Assembly: GCA_965205425.1 (NCBI GenBank)
Contig: CBDBGZ010000009.1
Span: forward strand, 800,001-864,000
Length of the DNA: 64,000 bases
Direction of reading: 5' to 3'
Source: Nitrosopumilus sp.
GTDB taxonomy: Archaea > Thermoproteota > Nitrososphaeria > Nitrososphaerales > Nitrosopumilaceae
Positions 1 to 31,028 of this stretch are shown one piece after another. The notes under the pieces are model-generated. The model worked only from the letters and a program-made list of their open reading frames with translations, searched no databases and was not told the DNA's origin. Within the stretch, counting starts at the first letter, position 1. Every line of letters starts with the position of its first letter. A program made the position numbers and the translations under genes.

Positions 1-2551
1 ATGATGTAGAAGTAAGTTCAATAATATTTTCAATTTTTGAAGAAACTGTTCTATTTGGTTTAATTTTTGATAATAAAGACATCCATTGAGGTTTAAATTT
101 CTCCCAAGAGTTTAAACCTCTATAATCATATTGAATTAATCCTAATCTTTCTAAGGAAAGTCTAAGTCTATTTGCATTTTCAAATAATATTTTAGTTTTA
201 AATTCTTCTCTGGATCGATCAAATGATTCAAAATTAAATGAATACCATTCTTCTTCTATAGTTTCTATCACAATTTCCTGAAATCTATCAAAACCAATGG
301 GCTCTTTTTCTAACAGAATAATTTCATTCAATTTTTGACTCATCAATTGTTTTATTGCAGTATCTTCATGAGCAAAATCTAACCAACCTGCAAGTTCTGC
401 CGCATCTTGTCTGCTATCAGTAAAAGTCAAAAATTTTCTATTTTCAACATGATCATATATCATATTGAAAAGATTTACAGTTGCTTGTTTTTCTGCCATA
501 TTAAATTTAGTTACAGCCCAACCACTACCATAACTATAATGACAAAATGGACAATCTCTTGGTCTCCAACTTGATGTTACATCTGATTTTGGAGGATATG
601 TCTCAATTAGAATTAGATTTTCTGAATTACAAATATTTTCATGAATATTGTTTATACAAACTGATGATGATATAGGCGAAAAACTTCCACAATCAAGACA
701 TTTCTTATATTTTCTAATTTTATGATCAACTTCTTCATCTTCTTCTTCAACTTCATTATTTTTAATCATTGAATACCATAATTCATCACTATCATTTTCT
801 GACTCATCAAATGATATTCGTTTAATTGGGTTTGGTTCTTCTGGTTGTTGATTTTCTGCAAGTTCTAATATTTTATTTCTTTCAGGAACGTTTAATCCAT
901 CTTCTAAGTCAGATTTGCTAACTTTTGAAACATAAAATTCATGTGAGCAATTTCTACAAACTCCTAATTCTTCTACAATTTTTTTACATTCATCACATTT
1001 TTCTTTATTTACAAAAAAGATTTTACTGCATTTTGGATTAGTACACATGAAAATTGGGGGTAATACTCTAAAGAAATTATGTATGCTTACTCTGAGTAAA
1101 GGTTCATCCAAATTTTGTGATGGATTTTTTGCTATACTTCCAGCTTTGAGGTAACTCCAGATCAAATCATCCAAAACTAAAGCATTTTCTGAATTTTTTA
1201 CTTTTGAAGAAATTATTTGTTCATTTTTTAATAATTTTTGAATTTCTTCTACGGAACGTGGTTCATCTAATTTTTTGATTAAAAATTGGAATAATTCATT
1301 CTGTAAAAGAATTTTTCCCAGAAATTTTCTTTTATCTTCTACAATTCCTTGATTGGAGCCTATGATAGAATTTTGTAATTTTATAAAATTTTCATCAGAA
1401 AAATTTTTCTCTAATTTATCGTCTATATTTAGTGGTTCAAGTTTATCAATTTGTTTTGTTGCTGGTAGTTCCCAAGGTTTTCTTTCACCTTCAAAAACAT
1501 CATCATTGGAAAATGTTACTCCGAATAATTTTTTTGCAAATTTTGCAATTTCTTGCTTACGCTCAGTAGGGTTTTTTGATTTTGACATAGTTGCACTTGT
1601 TCCAATGCACAAAAATTCAAGATTGTTAGGAGTAACAAAATCTAATCTACGTTTTAATCTTCTAAGAAGTAATGATACGTCTACACCTCTTGCTCCTTCA
1701 TATGTATGCATTTCATCTAAAATCAAATACTTGACTTTGTTATTTTCAAATAATGGAATATCTGAAGGTCGTAAAAGAATCCTATCTAACATAACATAAC
1801 TTGTAATTAGAATATCTGGAGGATTATCTCTTAATTCTTCTCTTGTTAATAATTGAAAATCTAATTCTACCTCTTTTTCTTCATTACAACGAAGAATACA
1901 ATTTGGATTTGAAGGTGTTTTTTCTACTACAAGAGAATCTTTCTTACAGTTTGGACATTGAAATTCTACATCTAATTTTGGATCTAATTTATTCCCACGA
2001 TATGCAGTTTCAGGAGTTGCACCATTGTATATTCCAAAAGTAATTTTTTTTAATCCTTTACTGTCTCTAATTTTATTTAATTTAAAAAGATAATCTCGTA
2101 ATCTAGTTACTTGATCTCCAGCTAAAGCATTCATGGGATAAACTATAATTGCTTTAATTCCTTCTACATTTGCTTTTGAACAAGTATCTAAAACTGGAAT
2201 TAAAAATGACTCTGTTTTTCCTGAACCAGTACCTGATGAAACAATTGTATTTTTTTCATTAAGAATAATATTTTTAATTGCCAGTTCTTGATGCTTGAAG
2301 AAATTTTCTACTCCAACAGCAGTTAGAACATCTTTATCAATATCTGCATCAGCCATTAATTCATAATCTTTTTGACCATGAAGATAATTTTGAGTGATTG
2401 AGATAAATGGAGATTTCCAAAGTCTATTATTGTTCTTTAATTCATCTAGTTTTTTAGCTAATTCTTTATTTCCTAATGCAAAGTTTGCTTTGTAAAAATC
2501 AACATAATTCTGTTGAATTTCTTTAGTTGCAGATAATGGATTAGTAATCAT
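1..2551 (-). CDS. Large SF2 DEAD/DEAH-box helicase with Zn-finger insertions (YprA/DruE/DUF1998-like), 3' end outside window
   Basis: Not in the ORF track; translated by hand from ATG at 2551 (ATGA overlap with the upstream cas4 stop, GGAG RBS): MITNPLSATKEIQQNY...; motifs SGTGSGKTESF, YPMNALAGDQ, LDEMHTYEGARG, GTSAT, FTDSRQDAAE and several CxxC pairs; open to position 1. Confidence 0.88.
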   Translation of the reverse strand, partial: MITNPLSATKEIQQNYVDFYKANFALGNKELAKKLDELKNNNRLWKSPFISITQNYLHGQKDYELMADADIDKDVLTAVGVENFFKHQELAIKNIILNEKNTIVSSGTGSGKTESFLIPVLDTCSKANVEGIKAIIVYPMNALAGDQVTRLRDYLFKLNKIRDSKGLKKITFGIYNGATPETAYRGNKLDPKLDVEFQCPNCKKDSLVVEKTPSNPNCILRCNEEKEVELDFQLLTREELRDNPPDILITSYVMLDRILLRPSDIPLFENNKVKYLILDEMHTYEGARGVDVSLLLRRLKRRLDFVTPNNLEFLCIGTSATMSKSKNPTERKQEIAKFAKKLFGVTFSNDDVFEGERKPWELPATKQIDKLEPLNIDDKLEKNFSDENFIKLQNSIIGSNQGIVEDKRKFLGKILLQNELFQFLIKKLDEPRSVEEIQKLLKNEQIISSKVKNSENALVLDDLIWSYLKAGSIAKNPSQNLDEPLLRVSIHNFFRVLPPIFMCTNPKCSKIFFVNKEKCDECKKIVEELGVCRNCSHEFYVSKVSKSDLEDGLNVPERNKILELAENQQPEEPNPIKRISFDESENDSDELWYSMIKNNEVEEEDEEVDHKIRKYKKCLDCGSFSPISSSVCINNIHENICNSENLILIETYPPKSDVTSSWRPRDCPFCHYSYGSGWAVTKFNMAEKQATVNLFNMIYDHVENRKFLTFTDSRQDAAELAGWLDFAHEDTAIKQLMSQKLNEIILLEKEPIGFDRFQEIVIETIEEEWYSFNFESFDRSREEFKTKILFENANRLRLSLERLGLIQYDYRGLNSWEKFKPQWMSLLSKIKPNRTVSSKIENIIELTSTS

Positions 2552-3285
2552 ATGATTGTCTCCTTTTTTGAGGTATTTAATGAAGATCCCTGAATATTAT
2601 TTATGATATTATTACTTTCATCTGGATTACATTGATTTAGAAATTTACAAAAATAACATAATTTTGAAAATTCTTTTTTAGGTGGATTTTTCTCTAACAG
2701 GGATTTTTCTAGTTCAAGAATTCTATCTTTTAACCACCATGTCTTATCCTCATTTTTTATTTGAAATGCAATCATGTCATTAAGATCAGCGTAAACAAGA
2801 ATTAAACGACTAACAGGGATAATATTTGAAAATATTGTTCCATAACATTGAATTTGTAAAATATCTTCTTTTTTAGGAATAGTTCCTTCTTCTGCTTGTG
2901 AATAGACATCTTTTGTAGTTTTTAGATCAATGATTGTTCTAGTTTTCCAATCATACATGTCTAGTCTACCTGAAATTGTTCTTAATTTCCCATTACCAAG
3001 TGGAATTTGAAAATCCATATCCAATTCATTCCAGTTGTATGCTGAAGTCATTTGATGTAATAGATCACCTCTTACTGTAGGCCACAAATTATCAAGTGTT
3101 TTTCTTGATTTTCTCTTCATCTTAGTTTTTTCATAATATGATTTTCTAAGGCAGCGAATTATCTCAGTTACTCCATATGATAGAGTTTTGTCATTTCTGA
3201 AAATCCCTGACTTTTTTTCTAAAAATGATGTAATCCCATCAGGAATGTCAACCTGCATGAATTGTTTGTTTTTTTCTTTTTGCAT
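2548..3285 (-). CDS. cas4: Cas4-like PD-(D/E)XK nuclease, copy 1 (solo, no CRISPR array)
   Basis: N-terminal Cys (IRCLRKSYY), GDLLH, GRLD...IIDLKT, QIQCY, C-terminal CYFCKFLNQC Fe-S ligands. Confidence 0.82.
   Translation of the reverse strand: MQKEKNKQFMQVDIPDGITSFLEKKSGIFRNDKTLSYGVTEIIRCLRKSYYEKTKMKRKSRKTLDNLWPTVRGDLLHQMTSAYNWNELDMDFQIPLGNGKLRTISGRLDMYDWKTRTIIDLKTTKDVYSQAEEGTIPKKEDILQIQCYGTIFSNIIPVSRLILVYADLNDMIAFQIKNEDKTWWLKDRILELEKSLLEKNPPKKEFSKLCYFCKFLNQCNPDESNNIINNIQGSSLNTSKKETII
2911..2964. repeat. 54-bp inverted repeat, left copy (inside cas4 copy 1)
   Basis: Reverse complement matches 4803-4856 at 53/54 nt. Confidence 0.95.
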
Positions 3286-3321
3286 ACATTACATTACAGT
3301 ATCTTTCTTATCAAATAATTA

Positions 3322-3334
3322 TTGTATAATACAA
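3322..3334. promoter_or_regulatory. Palindromic operator candidate TTGTAT-A-ATACAA upstream of the cas4-1/helicase operon
   Basis: Perfect 6+1+6 palindrome, identical to 4263-4275. Confidence 0.65.
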
Positions 3335-3346
3335 AAAATATTTGTA

Positions 3347-4246
3347 TTAAATTATATCTCCGATAGCCTCAGGATTTGCCGCATGAAGGTGACCAAAATC
3401 TGTCAATTCTATAAAAGTACTTTTTCTATCGGTTTTACCTGATTTTGTTTTCTCAATTCCTTTTACTCTTACAATTAATCCAGCGTCTTCGAGTTTATTC
3501 AAATGAAAATTAAGTAATGTTGTTGTAATTGGTCTAAATTCAACTTTCTTTTTGAATTTTCCAGTTTTTTTATATTTACTAGTTTTAGAGTCTTTTTCCT
3601 TTTCTGCCTTTAATTTTTCAGTTGGCATTCCTTCTTTATCAAAACTTTTTAATAATTTTGTTCTACTAACAGGTGGATTTAATTCCCAAATTCTTGCTAA
3701 TATACGTGAAGTAGTACTTTCAGTAGAACCTGAAATTGTATTTCTACTCTTTACTCTAGGTGGAACAGGTAATTCTATTACTAGTTCTTTTCCTTTTGCT
3801 TCATGGTATTGTAACACATAGTACATTTTGGTTTGTGCAAGATAAGCAGAGCATGCAGCTCCTGCAACCATTGCCTTTGTGCCACCAGTTAAGTTAATCG
3901 CAAAATCCTTTCCTTGTAATTTTGCATTTTTCTTTTTCTCTTTGCTGATAATTCCCTGAATTTCACGGATTACATCATATGTATCATATTTTCCAACCTT
4001 AACTAATTCCACTTGAATTTCAAACTCTTTTACAATTTCTCTTCTTAATTTTTCAGCATTGTCTTTATATTGTTGAGTTTTTAGATGATCTTTTTCTTTT
4101 CCTTTGGCTTTTTCTAAAGCATCTTCAAATTCTGATTTTGTTTTTTCATTTTCAGTATGTAAAATGTATATCTTATCTGGTGGATTTTTTCGTAATCCTT
4201 CTTTAACAACAATTTGAGTATCTCCAACTGTGGCTATTTGTATCAT
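3347..4246 (-). CDS. CARF-domain + winged-HTH regulator (Csa3-like)
   Basis: N-terminal Rossmann-like IATVG, KIYILHT, CARF motif INLTGGTK; C-terminal wHTH (LLNFHLNKLEDAGLI...IELTDFG). Confidence 0.8.
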   Translation of the reverse strand: MIQIATVGDTQIVVKEGLRKNPPDKIYILHTENEKTKSEFEDALEKAKGKEKDHLKTQQYKDNAEKLRREIVKEFEIQVELVKVGKYDTYDVIREIQGIISKEKKKNAKLQGKDFAINLTGGTKAMVAGAACSAYLAQTKMYYVLQYHEAKGKELVIELPVPPRVKSRNTISGSTESTTSRILARIWELNPPVSRTKLLKSFDKEGMPTEKLKAEKEKDSKTSKYKKTGKFKKKVEFRPITTTLLNFHLNKLEDAGLIVRVKGIEKTKSGKTDRKSTFIELTDFGHLHAANPEAIGDII

Positions 4247-4262
4247 ATAGTAAAAATAATAT

Positions 4263-4275
4263 TTGTATAATACAA
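4263..4275. promoter_or_regulatory. Palindromic operator candidate TTGTATAATACAA in the divergent CARF / cas4-2 promoter region
   Basis: Exact copy of 3322-3334; an 11/13 variant TTGTATGAAACAA lies at 4308-4320. Confidence 0.65.
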
Positions 4276-4311
4276 TATAAAGTCTTCATCATTCAGGCAC
4301 TATTCTATTGT

Positions 4312-4455
4312 ATGAAACAAAAGATTTCAAAACTAATGGGTGACGACCATATCGTCAAGCAATTTGCTGAAAATACTAGACCTCTAAATCTAGTTCAAGC
4401 TTTTCTTTATGCTTGTTTTGGAGGATTCTCAGTTAGAGAAATTCTAGAGGTGTAG
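4312..4455 (+). CDS. Small hypothetical protein (47 aa)
   Basis: Hand-translated MKQKISKLMGDDHIVKQFAENTRPLNLVQAFLYACFGGFSVREILEV*; fills the gap before cas4-2 and contains its GAGGTG RBS. Confidence 0.5.
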   Translation: MKQKISKLMGDDHIVKQFAENTRPLNLVQAFLYACFGGFSVREILEV

Positions 4456-4460
4456 CGAAA

Positions 4461-5207
4461 TTGAGTACTATTACTAAAGAAAAAATACCTAGTCTTACTG
4501 AAGAAATTGATACTCCTGAAGGTATAGTCAACTTTTTACAAAAAAGAAATGGATTATACTCTAAGGATTATACTTCAAGATATTCTGTAACTGAACTAGT
4601 TGGTTGTCAAAGAAAGTCTTTGTACAAACAACAAGAAGTATCTCAAGAAGAATTACTTGCAGATACAACTCTTGAAAGTATGTGGGCAACTGTTCGTGGT
4701 GATTTCCTACACAACATGACATATGCATACAAATGACGTGAGATGGATATTGAGCATTACATACCATTAGACAATGGTAAAGTAGCAACACTTGCAGGAA
4801 GGCTAGACATGTATGATTGGAAAACTAAAACAATCATTGATCTAAAAACTACAAAATTTGTTAGATGGCAAATAAAGCAAGGATTTTTGCCAAAACCTGA
4901 ACACATTCTTCAATTACAATGCTATGATACAATGTTTTCAGAATATGTGCCAGTAGAGAATCTAAACATTGTATATGCTGACATGTCTGATATTGTAACC
5001 TACAAGGTAGAAAAAAGAGACTTGACTGATTGGATAAAGACTAGAATCCAAGAAATTGAAACTGCTAAAACAGATAGTGTAATTCCAAATGGTGAAGTAT
5101 CTGGTTTATGCAAGTTTTGTAGGTATCAAACTAGATGTTCAGAGGCAGGAAATGGATTAACTGACAAACCATTATCTACTCCAAAACCAAATGAGGAATC
5201 TTCATGA
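4461..5207 (+). pseudogene. cas4: Cas4-like nuclease copy 2, interrupted by one in-frame TGA (4734-4736)
   Basis: ORFs 4461-4736 and 4743-5207 are in the same frame; AYK*REMD aligns with AYNWNELD of copy 1; retains GCQRKS, GDFLH, GRLD..DLKT, QLQCY, CKFCRYQTRC. Confidence 0.85.
4803..4856. repeat. 54-bp inverted repeat, right copy (inside cas4 copy 2)
   Basis: CTAGACATGTATGATTGGAAAACTAAAACAATCATTGATCTAAAAACTACAAAA; one mismatch to the reverse complement of 2911-2964. Confidence 0.95.
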
Positions 5208-5302
5208 ATTGTGAATCACCATTTCATGATTGTTGGATTTTGTTATTTGGAGAGTGCAAAAAATGTTATTCAGATGTGTATCAATCTAAAATATTCAACT
5301 GA
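5204..5302 (+). CDS. Cys-rich micro-ORF (32 aa)
   Basis: ATGA overlap with the cas4-2 stop; MNCESPFHDCWILLFGECKKCYSDVYQSKIFN*. Confidence 0.4.
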   Translation: MNCESPFHDCWILLFGECKKCYSDVYQSKIFN

Positions 5303-5783: not shown

Positions 5784-7148
5784 TTACCCAGATTTCATTA
5801 GACTACCTTGACTACTTCGACCACTTGTATCAATTCCATACTTTACTGCAAATGCAGTGATCAAATCTTTTGACAACACATAACTTGTAATTTTATGATA
5901 TTTGTTATTTTTTGAGACATAGTTGTGCTTCTTTTTTGCATGAAAGGTTTGCTCAAGAATACTTGCCAATTTATTCATAGTTATTTTTGTTCCAAATTCA
6001 TCAGGATAAAAAGTTCTTTGTGATTGATCTAATGTACCTGGCAGGTCAAGATTGTCATGAATGATAAGATTCCACAAATCAAGTGCTTTAATTTGATAAT
6101 TTTTATCAAGGTTTGATGAAATGATTTGAAAGAGTTTTGCAACTATGCTATTCTTTATTCCTTCTTGACGTTGTGATATATAGAATTGTGCAACCTGATT
6201 TGCTTTATCAAAGTATTTTGTATCAATAGTAGTAGAAATAAAATCATCCCACAACTCAGCATCTCTATTTTTTAATTTTGAATTAATGGGTGTAGGTATT
6301 TGCATTATGTTCTGTAATTTCCATACAAGTAGTTTGTTTCGTAACTGTTGAAGTGATTTCTTTTCTTCTGATGAAAGTTTCTTTATGTTTCCTTTAGGAA
6401 TACCTGACATCATATGAATGACGGCTAATCGTTCAACAAACCCTTTATCATTTGGAATTTTTTCTCCTGCAAACCATTTTTGACAAAATGTCTTGTAGAA
6501 AACTTGGTGTTTTCCTAGTGAATCTGTGCCTAAAATTCGTGCTTTTTTGGAACCTTTAGAATATGAACTCTTGTACATACGTAATTTTTCAGAGTTTGGA
6601 TGTAAACCTTGAGCCTCATCTTCAGCAATTGTTCCACATGCTTCTTCATCTTTTCCAAGAAAATTATACACATCAGCAGATGGAATGTCTTCACCTAGAT
6701 GACATCTATAACATAACCATGAAGCTAGATGAAGAATTGTGCTTTTACCAGATTCAGTATCACCTACACTAAATGGAAAGTGTAGTGTAGTAACCCATTC
6801 TTGACAATAACTTAACAAAATATCAATTTGAATTAGATGTCTTGTTAAATCATCAGTTACAACATATTTGTCAACCTGTGATTTTATTTCATCTAGTATC
6901 TTTTCTTTTGATATTGGTGTATTGATATAATCTAGTTCATCTTCAGTAAATGAATATGGAACATAACCACATTGGGATTCTTTGAGGGGTTTAACAAGAC
7001 CATCATATAGAATTGATTCCCTTACAACAAGTTTGTTTTCTGTTTTCTCATATGCAAGAAATTTTGGTTTCCCATTTACTAAAATTGATTCTACAAAGAA
7101 ATCACTTACATGACCTTTTGTCTTGGTTTGAGTAACTTGTTCAGACAT
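5784..7148 (-). CDS. P-loop NTPase, probable MGE replication helicase
   Basis: Walker A GDTESGKST, Walker B TIAEDEA, Arg-finger-like GFVERLAVI; downstream of an RHH gene string. Confidence 0.65.
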   Translation of the reverse strand: MSEQVTQTKTKGHVSDFFVESILVNGKPKFLAYEKTENKLVVRESILYDGLVKPLKESQCGYVPYSFTEDELDYINTPISKEKILDEIKSQVDKYVVTDDLTRHLIQIDILLSYCQEWVTTLHFPFSVGDTESGKSTILHLASWLCYRCHLGEDIPSADVYNFLGKDEEACGTIAEDEAQGLHPNSEKLRMYKSSYSKGSKKARILGTDSLGKHQVFYKTFCQKWFAGEKIPNDKGFVERLAVIHMMSGIPKGNIKKLSSEEKKSLQQLRNKLLVWKLQNIMQIPTPINSKLKNRDAELWDDFISTTIDTKYFDKANQVAQFYISQRQEGIKNSIVAKLFQIISSNLDKNYQIKALDLWNLIIHDNLDLPGTLDQSQRTFYPDEFGTKITMNKLASILEQTFHAKKKHNYVSKNNKYHKITSYVLSKDLITAFAVKYGIDTSGRSSQGSLMKSG

Positions 7149-9202: not shown

Positions 9203-10582
9203 ATGGTTGTTTCATATGGTAGTATTCTTATTGCAAGAATAAACCGAAATCCTCCATTTGTTAAAAAATTACTTTCCCGACTCTTCAAAACACCAGTTCA
9301 ATTCGTTGATAATCATGAATTTGTTTTTCATGTAAAATTTCCTGGAACTCATAACGAAGAGTTCCCACAACAATTAAAATCAAAATCCTCAAAACAATTT
9401 TTTGAAGTAAGACTCTGCTGGCATGGTTTTATCTTAATTAAATTTGAAAATAACACTGAATTAAATGACGATGAAAAACAATCACTTATTACCACAATTT
9501 ATGATTTTATAGAATTTCATATTCAAAGTGAAGAGGATTTATTTGAATATGATCTTACCATAACTCCAAAAGATGAAAGAAAAATATTTCCAACTAAAAC
9601 ATTTAAAGAAATAATTTTTGATAACACATCAGATTCGCAATTAATTCTTTCAAGTGTAAAAAACTTTGGAACAATTGTTAATCGATCATTACAAAAAAAC
9701 TTCAATGAACATAATGCCACTGTTTCTAATTCTATCAGAAAAAATTACGCACATACCATTCTATTGTCATTTATGATCTCACGAAGTCAATACTTGAGAC
9801 AATTTTACGCCTCAAAACGTTGTACTATAGTTCAAAATCCCCCTGTTTTTGATCAAATAACAAATGAATATGGCAATGTGATTACCGCCAACCGTGAAAT
9901 ATTTGATGTATTGGTAGATCCTAATCAAAAATTTGTGATTGAATCATCCCAAAAGGATCAGGTATCGGTAATTTCAATGGACATTGTTGGATTTAGTAAG
10001 AGTATTTCTCAAGATGGAGGTTCATCAATACAGGAACAAATTGATCAATTTAACCTGCTTTCTAAATGGATTTTTGATTGGCTAAGAGCAAAAAAAAGAT
10101 CGACCAGTCTACCAAAACCTGGAAATTCTGTATCGACCTCAAATTTCTGGATTAAATGTGTTGGTGATGGATATATTATCGCATTCAAGGATTTTGAGGA
10201 TGCGTTGAATTTGGCCAAATATCTCCAATCTAAAGAAAAACAAAAAGATCTTCCTCTTAGAGTTGGATTGGATCATGGAACGGTGCAATCTGTAAATGAT
10301 AGCGTGGGGAGGGAAGATTTGATTGGTTCAGCAATTACGTTGGCCGTTCGTATCATGTCTCAAGCTAATGAAGGAAACATATATTCTGCAAAATCATACG
10401 TACAAAAACTAAATGACGACAATGGTGCAAATTTTGTTAGTGGTGAAGATTTAGGAGTTCATCATGTTAAACATAAAATTCCATTAGAATTCTTTAATAT
10501 TTTTGATGATAACTGTGGAAATCCAATTCATCATAAATTTGATGATGAAGAACGAAAAAATTCCCCCTGCCCTAATTATTGA
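9203..10582 (+). CDS. Class III adenylate/guanylate cyclase-domain protein with unknown N-terminal domain
   Basis: SMDIVGFSK, KCVGDGYI, LRVGLDHG, DLIGSAITLAVRIMS. Confidence 0.82.
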   Translation: MVVSYGSILIARINRNPPFVKKLLSRLFKTPVQFVDNHEFVFHVKFPGTHNEEFPQQLKSKSSKQFFEVRLCWHGFILIKFENNTELNDDEKQSLITTIYDFIEFHIQSEEDLFEYDLTITPKDERKIFPTKTFKEIIFDNTSDSQLILSSVKNFGTIVNRSLQKNFNEHNATVSNSIRKNYAHTILLSFMISRSQYLRQFYASKRCTIVQNPPVFDQITNEYGNVITANREIFDVLVDPNQKFVIESSQKDQVSVISMDIVGFSKSISQDGGSSIQEQIDQFNLLSKWIFDWLRAKKRSTSLPKPGNSVSTSNFWIKCVGDGYIIAFKDFEDALNLAKYLQSKEKQKDLPLRVGLDHGTVQSVNDSVGREDLIGSAITLAVRIMSQANEGNIYSAKSYVQKLNDDNGANFVSGEDLGVHHVKHKIPLEFFNIFDDNCGNPIHHKFDDEERKNSPCPNY

Positions 10583-18756: not shown

Positions 18757-19907
18757 TGTGTTTCATCTTCAACTATTTGTGATAATGATTTTAAATTAAC
18801 ATCAACACCATTAGAATTTTTTAAATAAAATGCACCTTTGATACTATTCGTAGTAACTGCATCAACACTTTCTTTGTTAATTAATGGTGTCAAACAAGTA
18901 CAACAATCCGAAAGAATTTCACATCCAGCTCGTTCAAGCTCATTTGTATATCCAATCTTTCTAGCTTGTTCCTTAATTGTTCTTGGAGTAAACACCATAC
19001 ACCTTTTTTTAAATGATCTACCTTTGAGTCTGTTAGCTAAATCAAAAATTTCCTCTAATCCTAATTGAGGACTACCAAGTGTAATGATGTCACCTTTTTC
19101 TGTTGTATTTAGTTCATCATGAATATTTTGTACTTCTTTTTCATCAAATTCTATTTTTTCACAGTCTGATTCTCCTTTACCAAACAAAAATTTTGCACAT
19201 GTTCCTGAAGTGCCCATACCTCCACACATGGCTTTACACTGACGTGTATCCATTTCTTTCAACCCTGAAATGTTAATTGAAGTATCGCCAACTTTTCCTG
19301 CAAAAAATCCAAGCATACCATATGTTAGTTCATTTGGATTGTTGACTTTCATTCTAATTGTTATATTTGGAGAGTCTTCTTTCCTTAAAGAAGAATATGG
19401 ACTTGTACCAGTAATCGCACTAGCTAAAGCACTAAATGCACTTTCTTTGTTTGTTTTAAGATTATCATATGAATTTGCATAAATTGCAGCATTACTTTCT
19501 GCAAATGCTACTTGTGTACCATTTTCAGGAATGTCAAAAATTTCATATGGTATACAAGAAAATGATGGAGTTACACCCATTGTTTCATATGATTTTTTAA
19601 TTGACAATTGTTTTAAAATAAAATTATCATCTAAATTATAATTTGATACGTTATCAATATCAAATCCCATGGGATTCAAAGTTGTTTTTACTTTAACTCT
19701 TGCATTTTTACTAATACTTGATAAAAATTCTTCACCAGCATCTCCAATTGTATTATAATTTACTCCAGAAAGATGAACCCATTTTATAGGAACTAATTTT
19801 TCAGCATTAGTTGCTTCACCTGTAGCAGACAAAATTCTGTATGCCATTTCCATGATTTCACCTTGTTCACCTTTTAGAGCAGATTCTTCTTCTTTAGTTA
19901 ACTCCAA
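18753..19907 (-). CDS. Aconitase X large subunit (DUF521; phosphomevalonate dehydratase)
   Basis: MELTKEEE..L.GE.G, TTLNP, SCIPY, AESNA, DCC, TNS.K. Confidence 0.9.
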   Translation of the reverse strand: MELTKEEESALKGEQGEIMEMAYRILSATGEATNAEKLVPIKWVHLSGVNYNTIGDAGEEFLSSISKNARVKVKTTLNPMGFDIDNVSNYNLDDNFILKQLSIKKSYETMGVTPSFSCIPYEIFDIPENGTQVAFAESNAAIYANSYDNLKTNKESAFSALASAITGTSPYSSLRKEDSPNITIRMKVNNPNELTYGMLGFFAGKVGDTSINISGLKEMDTRQCKAMCGGMGTSGTCAKFLFGKGESDCEKIEFDEKEVQNIHDELNTTEKGDIITLGSPQLGLEEIFDLANRLKGRSFKKRCMVFTPRTIKEQARKIGYTNELERAGCEILSDCCTCLTPLINKESVDAVTTNSIKGAFYLKNSNGVDVNLKSLSQIVEDETQ

Positions 19908-28314: not shown

Positions 28315-28982
28315 TTTGAAGGGTGGGCAGAAGCTCAGCCAAAGAAGAGGAGAAGATGAAAGTGGGTTCGATATGAAAGGACATATTCAAACTCCATGTG
28401 GCATACTGACTGGAAGAAGCTAGACGATGGCAGGTGGTTTCTGTGTTACCAGGATGACACATCAAGGTTTATCGTCTCTCATGGAGTGTTTGCAGAAGCT
28501 ACTACAGATAACGCACTTGTGGTATTACATGAGGCAATTGCAAAGCACGGTAGGCCTGCATCAATTCTAACTGATCATGGCTCCCAGTTTTATGCAAACC
28601 AATCAGAATACAAGAGAAAAGGAGCATCCCAGTTTGAGCAGGAACTGGTAAAATTAGAGATAAAGCATATCATGGCAAGAGTGAACCATCCTCAAACCAA
28701 TGGAAAGTTAGAAAGATTTCACGGCGAGATTCAGAGAAAGCAGAAATGGTTTGGTACCATTGATGAGCTGGTCCACTGGTACAATCACATAAAGCCACAC
28801 ATGTCACTTGACTGGGATAATCTTGAGACCCCTGTAAAGGCATATGCAAGAAAGATGCCAGAGAAAGGAACAAGAGTTATTGATGAGCAGACAGGAGAAG
28901 AATACGATGTCAAATAAGGGACGAACTGATTTTGGGATACAACAATAATTTCCGGAAAAGATACTGATTTTGGGATACAACA
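28315..28982 (+). mobile_element. IS481-family transposase remnant (5'-truncated, in-frame TGA at 28357) with duplicated right end
   Basis: rve core WHTD, DD.SR, TDHGSQF, HPQTNGKLERF, YN..KPH.SL; ACTGATTTTGGGATACAACA at 28925 and 28963. Confidence 0.85.
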
Positions 28983-29034
28983 ACATTTCAAAGAAAGAAC
29001 AATCATAAAATAATGGATATTTTTAAAAAAATCA

Positions 29035-29556
29035 TTGAGCATGCGAAAAAGAATAGATCAACTGCATTCATATGTTTATGACCTTGAAAAGATTCAAGAC
29101 GAACAAAAGAATCACTCAAAACATGTATCAAAGATTAAAGAAGATCATATAAAAAATCCAACGAATGCAACATCTGCTACATATGCCATATTAGATACAA
29201 TTGAACAAAGTAAAATGTTTTTTAAAGAGCAGATTGACATAATCAAAAAAATATCTCCACTAATGTCTGAATATTTGGATTATCTTATGGAGGAATTTGA
29301 AGCGTTTCAGTTTGATATAAATTATGAACTCCAAGACAGTACCACTACACTTCAACAAAATCATCCAGATGCAATAAAAAAAATGCAAACAGTTGATGTA
29401 TTAATTGAGGAAATTGCAGATTGTTACAATCAACTACATCATACACTAATTATATCATATGATTCCTTTGGTGGAATGCTGAATTTTATAGAAAATATTA
29501 CACCAAAAAAGACAAAACAAAAACCAACTAAACAAAGGAAGAAAAATGTCAAATGA
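29035..29556 (+). CDS. Helical hypothetical protein
   Basis: 173-aa ORF, no recognised motif. Confidence 0.55.
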   Translation: MSMRKRIDQLHSYVYDLEKIQDEQKNHSKHVSKIKEDHIKNPTNATSATYAILDTIEQSKMFFKEQIDIIKKISPLMSEYLDYLMEEFEAFQFDINYELQDSTTTLQQNHPDAIKKMQTVDVLIEEIADCYNQLHHTLIISYDSFGGMLNFIENITPKKTKQKPTKQRKKNVK

Positions 29557-29617
29557 GGCACCAGTCATAGTCCAAAAATTATGGAATTTCTGTAATGTAC
29601 TTGAGACTTGGGCATAA
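29546..29617 (+). pseudogene. hsdM: N-terminal stump of a type I R-M methyltransferase
   Basis: Hand-translated MSNEAPVIVQKLWNFCNVLETWA*, matching the IVQKLW..CNVL(RD) start of HsdM proteins. Confidence 0.65.
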
Positions 29618-30043
29618 TGATTTACAAAAATAAAATCTAATTTCATTCTAAATTCTCTAACAACAAAGCATTCTTTTCACAATTCTTGGATTCTCTACTC
29701 CAATAATACAGTTGTAGTAAACTGCCAACTGATACACCAACACACAAATCAGTATAAATGATTTGACATTGTGCAATCCTTTTATAGTTTAGGCAAATAA
29801 TTTTTGAACGAATTATTAACTATTTTAATCCAAAAGATCTAGATCACAGAATTCGTTTTAAAAAACCATGTCAAAGAGTACAAGACAATCCAAGGTTTCC
29901 TCTGGAAATCAATTCATGAAAGGTACAAGCATTAATTTTTTGAGAAAAGCATGTAAAAATGAACGTATACCTCGGAGCATAATTCTTTGCAATTTTTCAA
30001 AACAAATAGCAATACTTTTTGATCAGTAGTTAGAAATAATTTC

Positions 30044-31028
30044 ATGGACATCACAAATGACGAGTTACTCCAGGTCTACAAAAAAGAAAAAAATATTCAC
30101 AAAAAAACAAGATTACATGCAATGTGCATTATTAAAATCAACGAATCCACAATTGCTGAAACTGTAAGCCAAATGTTTTGTACATGCAATTCTGTAATGA
30201 ACTGGCTTGATTCATTTGAAAAATATGGATTGGAGGACCCCCCCTCGTTCTGGCCGTCCGCCATTAATCTCACATAAAACATTACAAAAAATAGAGCGTA
30301 CATTTAAGAGAATTTCAGACGGCATGACTCCAAAGAAACTGATACAATTCATATTTTACAGAACACGCATTACATAGCAAATCACTCATGTGCGTCGTTT
30401 GATGCACAAATGGAATCTAAAACCAAAGGTTCGACAAAAGGTACATGTGCGAGCAGCATCCAAGTATACATGCCGCAAGTGGAATAGTCGCATCATTTCA
30501 CGCGTAGAAAAGGCAAAAAAGAATGGTTTTACAGTATTCATCCAAGACGAATCAGTATTTGTAGACGATGTGCGTCTTGGCAAAAAATACTGGACAGATG
30601 CACACCAAAGAATGATTGTACGTTGGAGAGGATCGCACCAAAGATTTTTGGTTTATGGAAATGATGATAATCAAAGTTTTTTTAGATCGTATGAAAAATT
30701 TAATTCAATTGCATTTATGGATTATTTGGAGGCAGCTCGTAAAAAATTTGGAAAAATATTTGTTATTGTTGATAGGGCACCGCAACACAAAGCTAATGAT
30801 GTGAAAAAATATTTGCACAAAAACAAAGATGTCAAACTGGCATATCTTCTGAGAGGCTCCCCGCATTTGAGTATGATTGAAGAGGTTTGGAGACAGTGCA
30901 AACATGTTAATGTTGAATCAGAATTTTATGAATCTATTCATGAGATGAGACATACAGTTATGGAATATTTTAGAACGCACAAATTTAATTTGAATATGTA
31001 TCAGTATTTTGCAAGAACAGTAAATTGA
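30044..31028 (+). mobile_element. IS630-family transposase, frameshifted/degraded
   Basis: HTH fragment 30044-30277; DDE part FIQDES, IVDRAPQH, SPHLSMIEEVW. Confidence 0.85.

Follow-up and report, generated by a model that had tools for sequence, protein, structure and literature searches.

What do two Cas4-like nuclease genes do beside a CARF-domain regulator and a giant helicase in an archaeal genome in which no Cas1 is found? The window analyzed here is a 64,000-nucleotide stretch of the Nitrosopumilus sp. assembly GCA_965205425.1 (contig CBDBGZ010000009.1, positions 800,001 to 864,000; G000:C9:800001-864000 in our numbering), and its left flank was read as a second segment, L004 (C9:785001-805000). 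The host genome is 2.2 Mb long and 99.55% complete. We found that a cassette of about nine defense genes, riding on an integrase island, has one of its ends in the first 5.3 kb of the window. The cassette is a real, conserved and unnamed variant within the YprA-helicase defense supergroup and, by its defining partners, a member of no named system. We consider it probable that it encodes a regulated, modification-dependent restriction system of the DISARM/Dpd/ARMADA/Druantia supergroup, in which Druantia-III-like helicase mechanics are joined by added Cas4 nucleases.

Results

Gene content and order of the cassette

Genes were identified from a listing of open reading frames (ORFs) together with Pfam and PADLOC 2.0.0 profile scans. 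In window positions 1-5302 these methods give four genes, encoding a helicase, Cas4-like protein 1, a CARF protein with a winged helix-turn-helix domain (CARF-wHTH) and Cas4-like protein 2. The first-pass annotation, made from the letters of the window, had described two Cas4-like paralogs flanking a CARF-wHTH gene, and all four genes are present as it stated. The features that the argument uses are as follows, the last two lying left of the window (aa, amino acids; IS, insertion sequence; PLD, phospholipase D).

1..2551 (-): DruE/YprA-type helicase, N-terminal 850 codons in the window; ORF called from position 2, running off the left edge
2548..3285 (-): Cas4-like nuclease 1 (cas4-1), 245 aa, by ORF, Pfam and PADLOC; its stop overlaps the helicase start
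3322..3334: palindrome TTGTATAATACAA, candidate operator, 37 nt upstream of the cas4-1 start
3347..4246 (-): CARF-wHTH regulator, 299 aa, Csa3-like by Pfam and fold match
4263..4275: palindrome TTGTATAATACAA in a divergent promoter region, 17 nt to the CARF start and 37 nt to the small47 start
4312..4455 (+): small47, a conserved 47-aa ORF directly before cas4-2, by translation and homologs in other loci
4461..5207 (+): Cas4-like nuclease 2 (cas4-2), broken by an in-frame TGA, by ORF, Pfam and PADLOC
4734..4736 (+): TGA stop that interrupts cas4-2, on a Trp conserved in an alignment of 121 family members
G000:C9:798802 (-): end of the helicase ORF inside an IS66-family element; N-terminal ORF of 1249 aa
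C9:794998-797181 (helicase strand): remaining helicase part, an ORF of 727 aa with MZB/DUF1998 and PLD-like MIT_C

Read from right to left, the cassette in its own genome consists of small47 and Cas4-2; CARF-wHTH; Cas4-1, helicase and DruX (our name for the protein encoded after the helicase); a convergent methyltransferase; and p148 and p54. The Cas4-1, helicase and DruX genes are chained by 4-bp overlaps. The ATGA through which the first-pass annotation had coupled cas4-1 to a Zn-finger superfamily 2 (SF2) helicase was read directly in the sequence, and a second ATGA joins the helicase to the DruX gene. Left of the methyltransferase lie two transposase genes, p148 (148 aa), the Cys-rich p54 (54 aa) and a tyrosine integrase. 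Housekeeping genes restart left of the integrase and near window position 11 kb. The cassette sits on an integrase-bearing island, which bears out the mobile-element setting that had been proposed. The space before the second Cas4 copy had been taken as intergenic; it holds the conserved small47 ORF at 4312-4455 on the forward strand.

A DruE/YprA-type helicase cut by an insertion sequence

The part of the helicase inside the window matches Pfam DEAD (E 2.7e-24), along with Helicase_C and ResIII, and an alignment of 32 relatives shows many invariant Cys clusters. Its N-terminal part matches PADLOC DruE1 with E 1.6e-110, and its C-terminal part continues the same profile (E 5.8e-32, positions 1338-1738 of 1776) and fits DruE3 over positions 1324-1940 of 2055, with a PLD-like end. 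This C-terminal half, retrieved from the left flank, carries MZB (Pfam E 3.4e-9; MZB/DUF1998) and the PLD-like MIT_C, with PLDc_2 found in relatives. The first-pass annotation had cited YprA/DUF1998-type helicases as background; this half, the OB-fold partner, the methyltransferase and the IS lay beyond the letters available to it. The HKD motif takes the variant form H-x-R-x4-D, whose H and R are invariant in 34/34 sequences. PADLOC DruE models match at E 1e-94 to 1e-139, and the intact helicase of a related locus, L018, is collinear with DruE1 over residues 8-1711 (E 2.2e-139). DrmA matches are weak by comparison (E 1e-23 to 1e-26 versus 1e-110 for DruE), and the BrxHI and BrxHII models match only the RecA2 region.

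The first helicase ORF is followed by an IS66-family transposase gene (DDE_Tnp_IS66, E 5.7e-32). The element, at L004 12411-13821 (G000:C9:797411-798821), is 1411 bp long and has a single 446-aa transposase, 24-bp inverted ends and an 8-bp duplication, CATTAAAT. Four other full copies, 99-100% identical and each with its own 8-bp duplication, occur in the genome, plus fragments. Removing the element and one target-site copy in silico restores a single helicase frame of 2044 aa, and relatives measure 2038-2077 aa; helicase, DUF1998 and PLD-like parts are fused in one frame in all 31 close relatives. By profile continuity, target duplication and the frame restored on excision, the helicase is a single DruE/YprA-type gene recently cut by the IS at residue 1243. 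The helicase of more than 850 aa in the first-pass annotation was real; its ORF extends to 1249 aa and ends inside the insertion. The IS66-family element is a young one, present in five full copies.

Two Cas4-like nucleases and small47

The two Cas4-like proteins are 45% identical to each other. Against the Pfam Cas_Cas4 cut-off of 22.7 bits, Cas4-like 1 scores 22.3 and Cas4-like 2 scores 25.9, and the PADLOC Cas4 matches have E 2.9e-12 and 2.4e-13, respectively. Cas4 proteins are recognized by one N-terminal and three C-terminal Cys, a D...(D/E)xK active site and a QxxxY motif. Conservation of the corresponding residues (C45, D109, D120-L-K122, Q144..Y148 and C210/C213/C219) is 95% or more across 121 sequences, and both paralog families have the PD-(D/E)xK and iron-sulfur (Fe-S) Cys features of Cas4. 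Weak matches to PADLOC DruK, also PD-(D/E)xK, were obtained for the two proteins (E 2e-5 and 6e-4). The second gene is Cas4-like and lies where it had been annotated, except that it is interrupted by the in-frame TGA at 4734-4736. This codon falls on a Trp that is 98% conserved among the 121 family members, and the L016 ortholog of Cas4-2 is an open frame of 248 aa with 96-97% identity. Recoding of TGA as Trp was considered and is unlikely, given that the other genes of the cassette end on ordinary stops, with TGA serving in cas4-1 and druE, and that the L016 ortholog is open. Homologs of small47 stand ahead of Cas4-2 in L016 (E 4e-26), L091 (E 7e-24) and L018 (E 8.5e-15). A complex prediction of DruE residues 1-750 with Cas4-1, both supplied as alignments, returned a score of 0.00, which is no answer and evidence neither way. 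Elsewhere on the contig, at G000:C9:645211-645396, lies a third Cas4-like ORF, in a 218-aa frame (Cas_Cas4, 23.1 bits).

The partner protein DruX and the methyltransferase

DruX is a 475-aa protein with a predicted oligonucleotide/oligosaccharide-binding (OB) fold, and its length in related loci is 474-477 aa. No Pfam or PADLOC family matches it, apart from one sister-clade copy with a weak match to DrmC (E 1.9e-4), and it is rare, with 44 cluster representatives among 1.84 billion. An AlphaFold model built from 41 sequences has a mean predicted local distance difference test (pLDDT) of 90.7 and a predicted template modeling score (pTM) of 0.91. In a VIA comparison that covered mainly residues 177-308, the central domain (about residues 183-297) aligned to the OB folds of MCM (MCM-N), Stn1-Ten1, Teb1 and RPA, with Z 9.7-8.7, root-mean-square deviation (rmsd) 2.5-3.1 Å and 86-111 residues aligned. 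Foldseek ranked Teb1 AB (E 1.1e-4) highest, together with the HIN-200 DNA sensors and their tandem OB domains, all at low template modeling (TM) scores. Based on the model, we assign DruX to the OB-fold proteins with moderate confidence, at the level of this domain.

The neighboring gene is convergent with that of DruX, overlaps it by 4 bp and encodes a 473-aa amino-DNA-methyltransferase (Pfam N6_N4_Mtase, E 1.3e-19) with FSGSG and DPPH motifs. In PADLOC, the L018 ortholog matches two models, MTase_II (E 1.2e-49) and a part of PglXI (E 1.6e-46).

Conservation in related archaeal loci

Relatives were sought among 5.8 billion proteins, which gave 224 Cas4-like matches (the best 120 listed), 1384 helicase matches (the best 120 listed) and 53 CARF-wHTH matches. 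Among the matches listed, at least 16 of the 31 helicase relatives with 42% identity or more appear on the same contig as a Cas4-like match, and 8 of the 31 on the same contig as a CARF match; shared contigs were recognized by proxy, as an equal size of the "longest contig" recorded for both proteins. Direct inspection of the DNA of related contigs confirmed the linkage. Five loci are described here, and the cassette parts that they carry are intact.

L016: helicase 78% identical; gene order as in the window for Cas4-2, CARF, Cas4-1 and the helicase, within which the contig breaks off
L018: helicase 47.5% identical; complete gene set, together with tRNA-Thr and an integrase
L091 (single-cell genome named Marine Group I thaumarchaeote): helicase 46% identical to P0123; order integrase, p54, p148, CARF, Cas4-1, helicase, DruX, methylase, Mrr_N gene, small47, Cas4-2; chromosomal genes on both sides
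L019: helicase 43% identical; CARF on the opposite strand; Cas4-1, helicase, DruX and the first part of the methylase
L017: contig begins within the helicase and shows its end together with DruX and the methylase

At the positions that each contig makes visible, CARF and Cas4-1 are each present in 5/5 loci (own, L016, L018, L019 and L091), DruX and the methylase each in 5/5 (own, L017, L018, L019 in part and L091) and Cas4-2 in 4/4 (own, L016, L018 and L091). The co-occurrence of these genes in related contigs is far beyond chance. The first-pass annotation had named their failure to co-occur in other genomes as grounds for giving up its proposal; in other archaeal contigs they do co-occur. 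Integrases adjoin the cassette in its own genome, in L018 (beside tRNA-Thr), in L091 and in L104, a more distant locus described below.

The cassette is sporadic in distribution. No helicase ortholog was found in 60 related genomes, where the matches were short and generic to SF2 motifs (best E 5e-18, in ORFs of about 330-1030 aa), and a DruX profile matched one of 401 genomes sampled from the phylum, which is the host genome itself. A scan of viral contigs with the helicase alignment returned only 2 distant relatives, at 23-26% identity, and gave no sign of a viral home. One gene is particular to L091: at 19081-19431, the methylase is separated from small47-Cas4-2 by a gene of 116 aa with an Mrr_N domain (Pfam E 8.9e-20), whose product also matches the N terminus of a PADLOC type IV restriction enzyme (E 2.4e-10).

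Exchange of modification genes in sister clades

In nine more distant loci (L020, L022, L023, L024 in part, L025, L026, L028, L038 and L104) the helicase likewise adjoins DruX, and the Cas4 profile matches in none of the nine. Seven of them carry 7-deazaguanine-type or related genes in the cassette. L020, L024 and L026 have a TGT/DpdA-like plus DUF6884/DUF5591 fusion directly upstream, L028 a TGT gene after DruX, L025 genes for GTP cyclohydrolase I (FolE) and QueC, L022 a DUF6884 gene and L104 a radical SAM gene. TPR and WD40 genes lie upstream in L023, and L038 is too short to tell. Helicase and DruX thus stay constant while the modification genes differ, and the modification module around this fixed core, either methylase or 7-deazaguanine, is exchangeable. 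Such a core with swappable marking modules is the strongest argument that the methylase belongs to the system and that self may be told from non-self by DNA modification.

The CARF-wHTH regulator and its candidate operator

The regulator matches Pfam HFX_2341_N (E 1.9e-10), Cas_APE2256 (E 1.1e-5) and CARF_Card1. Makarova et al. reportedly defined the CARF ligand-loop motif in 2014 as [DN]-x-[ST]-x3-[RK]. The protein keeps this loop motif, and its N118-x-T120-G-G-T123 is invariant in 45 sequences. The structural model (pLDDT 85.9) gave Foldseek matches to Can2, Csm6, Cam1 and Csa3, and alignment to Csa3 extends over about 300 columns (2wte, E 4e-6; 6wxq, bound to cyclic tetra-adenylate [cA4], E 6.5e-6). 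A sequence search of the PDB with the CARF alignment returned only weak ring-nuclease matches (E 0.025). In the architecture of its modeled fold, CARF-wHTH is Csa3-like, with an extra Lys-rich insert.

The palindrome TTGTAT(A/T)ATACAA occurs in 5 exact copies in the 2.2-Mb genome, compared with about 0.7 expected from base composition, and 3 of the 5 lie in the island. Two are in the window, and the third is at L004 4207, 37 nt before p148. Placement is the same in L016 (2 sites), L019 (1) and L091 (3, of which two have a single mismatch). Of nine start-proximal sites, eight stand exactly 37 nt from the ATG and the ninth 38 nt. These data point to the three units forming one regulon of a sequence-specific DNA binder, most simply the encoded CARF-wHTH. 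The parallel with Csa3 drawn in the first-pass annotation is supported in fold and in the ligand-loop motif, and an operator-like palindrome precedes three units. The description there of the module as regulated by a nucleotide signal keeps the standing of a suggestion, given that no producer of the signal was found.

In its promoter and first 15 codons, small47 nearly duplicates p148. In each locus a promoter-plus-leader module of about 130 nt is duplicated, before small47-Cas4-2 and before p148-p54 (window 4240-4400 and L004 4082-4242; also in L016, L018 and L091); an 11-nt core, AATGGGTGACG, is identical in all eight copies and is followed by a short GACG...CGTC inverted repeat. The copies are more alike inside one locus than between loci, which suggests gene conversion or a cis-element. 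The two units that follow them are swapped in L091 relative to the own locus and L018. About 5 kb from the CARF gene, the island also encodes (window 9203-10582, forward strand) a 459-aa protein in which Pfam recognizes a class III adenylate/guanylate-cyclase domain (E 7.3e-8). It has no PADLOC match, no homolog of it was found in L016, L018 or L019, and it could be unrelated cargo or a signal source.

Decay of the host copy

Three attack genes are hit in the host genome: druE by the IS, druX by a frameshift at an A7 run that leaves ORFs of 137 and 286 aa, and cas4-2 by the nonsense codon. The methyltransferase, CARF-wHTH and cas4-1 are still open, and two IS-type transposase genes part the methylase from the p148 promoter region. 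The attack half of the system in this genome is dead or dying. Broken attack genes beside an intact methylase are the decay pattern expected of a restriction-modification-like pair.

At both the frameshift and the TGA, Logan contigs of two sequencing runs from one study, X1 and X3, show 0 differences from the assembly. These contigs reach 29 and 24 nt into the IS ends, and 31 letters are needed to call the site bridged. X4, a run from another study, agrees with the assembly at the druX frameshift and the right IS end. No contig of the runs compared joins across an empty IS site, contigs being a source that cannot reveal rare variants. The lesions are not a one-off assembly error.

Discussion

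A regulated restriction system as the favored explanation

We propose that the methyltransferase would mark host DNA and that the YprA-type helicase would load on exposed single-stranded DNA or ends of an unmarked invader and unwind it 3'-5', as shown for E. coli DruE. The OB-fold protein DruX may hold the single strand, a role shown for DruH, while the Fe-S Cas4-like nucleases, perhaps with the PLD-like domain, would degrade the DNA. The arrangement would correspond to an AddAB-like helicase-nuclease logic divided over several proteins. The Csa3-like CARF-wHTH would bind TTGTAT(A/T)ATACAA over the promoters of three or four units and set their expression, possibly through a nucleotide ligand.

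Several considerations weigh against this explanation. Every biochemical step in it is one that we infer from the observed gene content, conservation, lesions, folds and palindrome. Druantia III of E. coli needs no methylation and can do without its PLD-like domains (10.64898/2026.05.12.722862), so that the methyltransferase here might be a mere neighbor and the PLD-like domain inert. Between the host locus and L018, the methyltransferase is 79% identical and the helicase only 47%, a gap in sequence identity that hints at a partly separate history. The query-normalized TM scores of DruX are 0.16-0.22, and its Z of 9.7 is modestly above the 7-8 that VIA calls common. It is the position of the palindrome that suggests binding by CARF-wHTH. 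The CARF ligand has no known source, and Cas10, Cas1 and SMODS were not found in the host genome. The clade loci are kin, five beside that of the window, and their counts measure conservation rather than independent events. As for the decay, X1 and X3 may be the assembly's own source data, and by analogy with the natural DrmA/DrmB-type split, near which the IS lies, the two half-proteins may keep residual activity.

Relation to Druantia and other named systems

The closest alternative, which we judge rather unlikely, is a Druantia-III-like defense that is independent of modification: the helicase would sense single-stranded DNA exposed as an invader replicates, DruX would stand in for DruH, the Cas4 proteins would be added effectors and the methyltransferase would be a separate orphan or part of an adjoining system. 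Druantia consists of DruE and type-specific partners, with types I, II, III-A and III-B (10.64898/2026.05.13.724758), and a type IV of DruE, DruF and DruL (PMC8565338). The large YprA-like helicase with DUF1998/MZB that characterizes any type is present here. For type III the likeness goes further and favors this alternative, given the DruE-family matches, the giant YprA/MrfA-like SF2 helicase with MZB/DUF1998, the fit of its C-terminal part to DruE3 with a C-terminal PLD-like end, and a co-encoded partner of single-stranded-DNA-binding type, the OB fold of DruX paralleling DruH. The far better conservation of the methyltransferase than of the helicase between loci also favors it. DruH itself has 1119 aa with Ig-like subdomains, and E. 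coli Druantia III adds no methylation (10.64898/2026.05.12.722862). Here, instead, a 475-aa OB-fold partner follows the helicase, with two Cas4-like nucleases, a methyltransferase and a CARF regulator added. No PADLOC DruH match appeared at E<=0.01-0.1 among the neighbors scanned, including DruX from five loci, and there were no PADLOC matches to DruA-D (type I), DruM/DruF/DruG (type II) or DruF/DruL (type IV) among the cassette proteins. A separate methyltransferase is further at odds with its adjoining, convergent position and 4-bp overlap with druX in 5/5 visible loci, and with the sister clades that hold a different DNA-modification module in the same cassette.

ARMADA comprises YprA, a BrxHII-like helicase, a PglX-like methylase and a Vsr-type C terminus in the text of Bell et al. 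2025, which also defines BRIGADE and TALON (PMC12458937). The cassette resembles ARMADA type I in its PglX-like methyltransferase, as seen in the L018 ortholog. It differs in that the helicase C terminus is PLD-like rather than Vsr, and no BrxHII/RapA-like second helicase was found in the own, L018 or L091 cassettes. With DISARM class 1 it shares a helicase, DUF1998, a PLD nuclease and a DNA methyltransferase in what would be modification-dependent restriction, and the IS splits the helicase near the boundary between DrmA and DrmB. However, the domains that DISARM distributes over DrmA, DrmB and DrmC are fused here in one 2044-aa protein, DrmD and DrmE are absent, and DISARM has no Cas4, DruX or CARF. 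The likeness to Dpd and BRIGADE lies in the TGT/DpdA-like, DUF6884, FolE and QueC genes of sister-clade helicase-DruX loci; the own, L018 and L091 cassettes differ in having a methyltransferase and no deazaguanine genes. BRIGADE has two YprA helicases and is reported only from haloarchaea, and PLD nucleases are said in the same text to be "occasionally substituted with PD-(D/E)xK" nucleases (PMC12458937). The sequence left of the window, in which the first-pass annotation had foreseen that a standard locus might explain the genes, contains no such Druantia, DISARM or CRISPR locus, and membership of standard Druantia, DISARM or ARMADA was rejected feature by feature.

A possible inducible immunity controlled by the CARF protein

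A more specific proposal, unlikely as a whole, is that the cassette provides inducible YprA-helicase immunity. CARF would sense a nucleotide derived from the invader or from degradation by the system's own Cas4 proteins and helicase, without a CRISPR type III or CBASS source, and through the 13-bp operator it would induce the two Cas4 proteins, helicase, DruX and p148/p54; the duplicated leader would let units swap, and the marking module would be exchangeable. The regulator resembles Csa3 in having CARF followed by a winged helix and in its alignment to 2wte and 6wxq. It differs in that its CARF domain falls in Pfam HFX_2341_N, in the Lys-rich insert and in a host without type III CRISPR or another known source of cyclic oligoadenylate.

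Repair and CRISPR alternatives

We find it quite improbable that the cassette is a DNA repair, recombination or replication module of the mobile element, that is, an AddAB/MrfAB-like helicase-nuclease with an SSB-like (single-stranded-DNA-binding) partner and no part in immunity. Repair is indeed a role of YprA/MrfA relatives, and viruses and mobile elements also carry Cas4-like nucleases (PMC5704561). The OB fold of DruX is like those of RPA and SSB proteins, and the cassette rides on integrase islands. However, the helicase scores as DruE rather than as a repair YprA, and Bell et al. place the L091 protein in the defense branch as ARMADA-like (PMC12458937). The link to DNA-modification genes is typical of restriction systems, the distribution of DruX and of the helicase is sporadic, and the host tolerates multi-hit decay.

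A remnant of CRISPR adaptation, with Csa3-controlled cas4 genes left after loss of cas1, cas2 and the array, is scarcely credible: a Csa3-like regulator does adjoin cas4 genes, and Csa3 regulates adaptation genes in Sulfolobales, but the 99.55%-complete genome has no Cas1 and no Cas10, a crude repeat scan found five short periodic repeats with none within 150 kb of the locus, no related locus examined shows cas1 beside the cassette, and cas4-1 is coupled to the helicase. The Cas1 profile (PF01867) matched nothing in the host genome and was positive in control genomes, Cas2 being outside the search. We reject the CRISPR adaptation reading on the lack of Cas1 and Cas10. The first-pass annotation had noted the absence of cas1 from the window, which holds for the whole genome, and had offered an acquisition system as an alternative, which falls with the absence of Cas1, Cas10 and SMODS.

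Novelty and implications

The modification-dependent restriction system that we favor has been met in the literature in part. Hudaiberdiev et al. 2017 reported a Cas4-COG1205 (YprA) link and predicted "so far uncharacterized defense pathways" (PMC5704561). The supplementary tree of that paper contains two leaves labeled "Cas4-COG1205 Marine Group I thauma...", and its text describes the pair alone, with no CARF, second Cas4, OB-fold partner, methyltransferase or operator of this system. The Cas4-helicase pair is thus already in print and the helicase lineage already tabulated. In the main text of Bell et al., the label "deep branching" and the terms "Cas4" and "DruH" are absent (PMC12458937); Table S1 of that paper gives the label to eight other helicases, with Methanocella, Methanococcus, Thermococcus and Tissierella among their sources. 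The text of Krupovic et al. 2019 on thaumarchaeal integrated elements gives Cas4 only in a casposon and DUF1998 never (PMC6563490), and a full-text literature search returned no relevant paper joining Druantia with Cas4. In the literature text covered, as distinct from figures, we found no description of the complete gene set, of the OB-fold partner, of the CARF regulon with its operator or of the swap of methylase for deazaguanine genes. Of the undescribed system that had been suggested, it holds that no named system fits. The profile searches proposed in the first-pass annotation return DruE1 at E 1.6e-110 and hence place the cassette as a variant inside a known supergroup, whose Cas4-YprA link was printed in 2017 (PMC5704561).

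If the favored explanation is true, Cas4-family nucleases would act as effectors of helicase-based restriction outside CRISPR. To our knowledge, marine ammonia-oxidizing-type archaea mostly lack CRISPR. The cassette would then give such archaea a defined inducible defense. A helicase-DruX core with swappable marking modules links Druantia, ARMADA, DISARM and Dpd within a single small clade, which opens to direct test the question of how YprA systems distinguish self from non-self. The CARF regulator, which has a clear operator and whose genome lacks a known cyclic-oligonucleotide synthase, is a clean entry point for new CARF ligands. The host copy, with its restriction genes hit and its methylase spared, is a record of system breakdown.

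Other features of the island

A 12-bp direct repeat, ATAGAAACCACT, lies at G000:C9:786596 and at window 11033, the two plausible ends of the island, just past a lipid-synthase gene and just before a short-chain dehydrogenase gene; a repeat of this length carries little weight. Window 5784-7148 on the reverse strand encodes a 454-aa protein with a P-loop (GDTESGKST) and without a Pfam or PADLOC family, and a 62%-identical homolog adjoins Cas4-2 in L016. The gene probably serves the maintenance of the mobile element. The stretch between p148 and the methylase start (L004 4171-7105) spans 2.9 kb and holds an IS4-type gene (DDE_Tnp_1) and a two-ORF IS630-type transposase (HTH_33, DDE_3), compared with only 164 bp at the equivalent place in L018. 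Further transposase genes (rve integrase core, DDE_3) occur amid housekeeping genes at window 28396-31028, and the genome is rich in insertion sequences.

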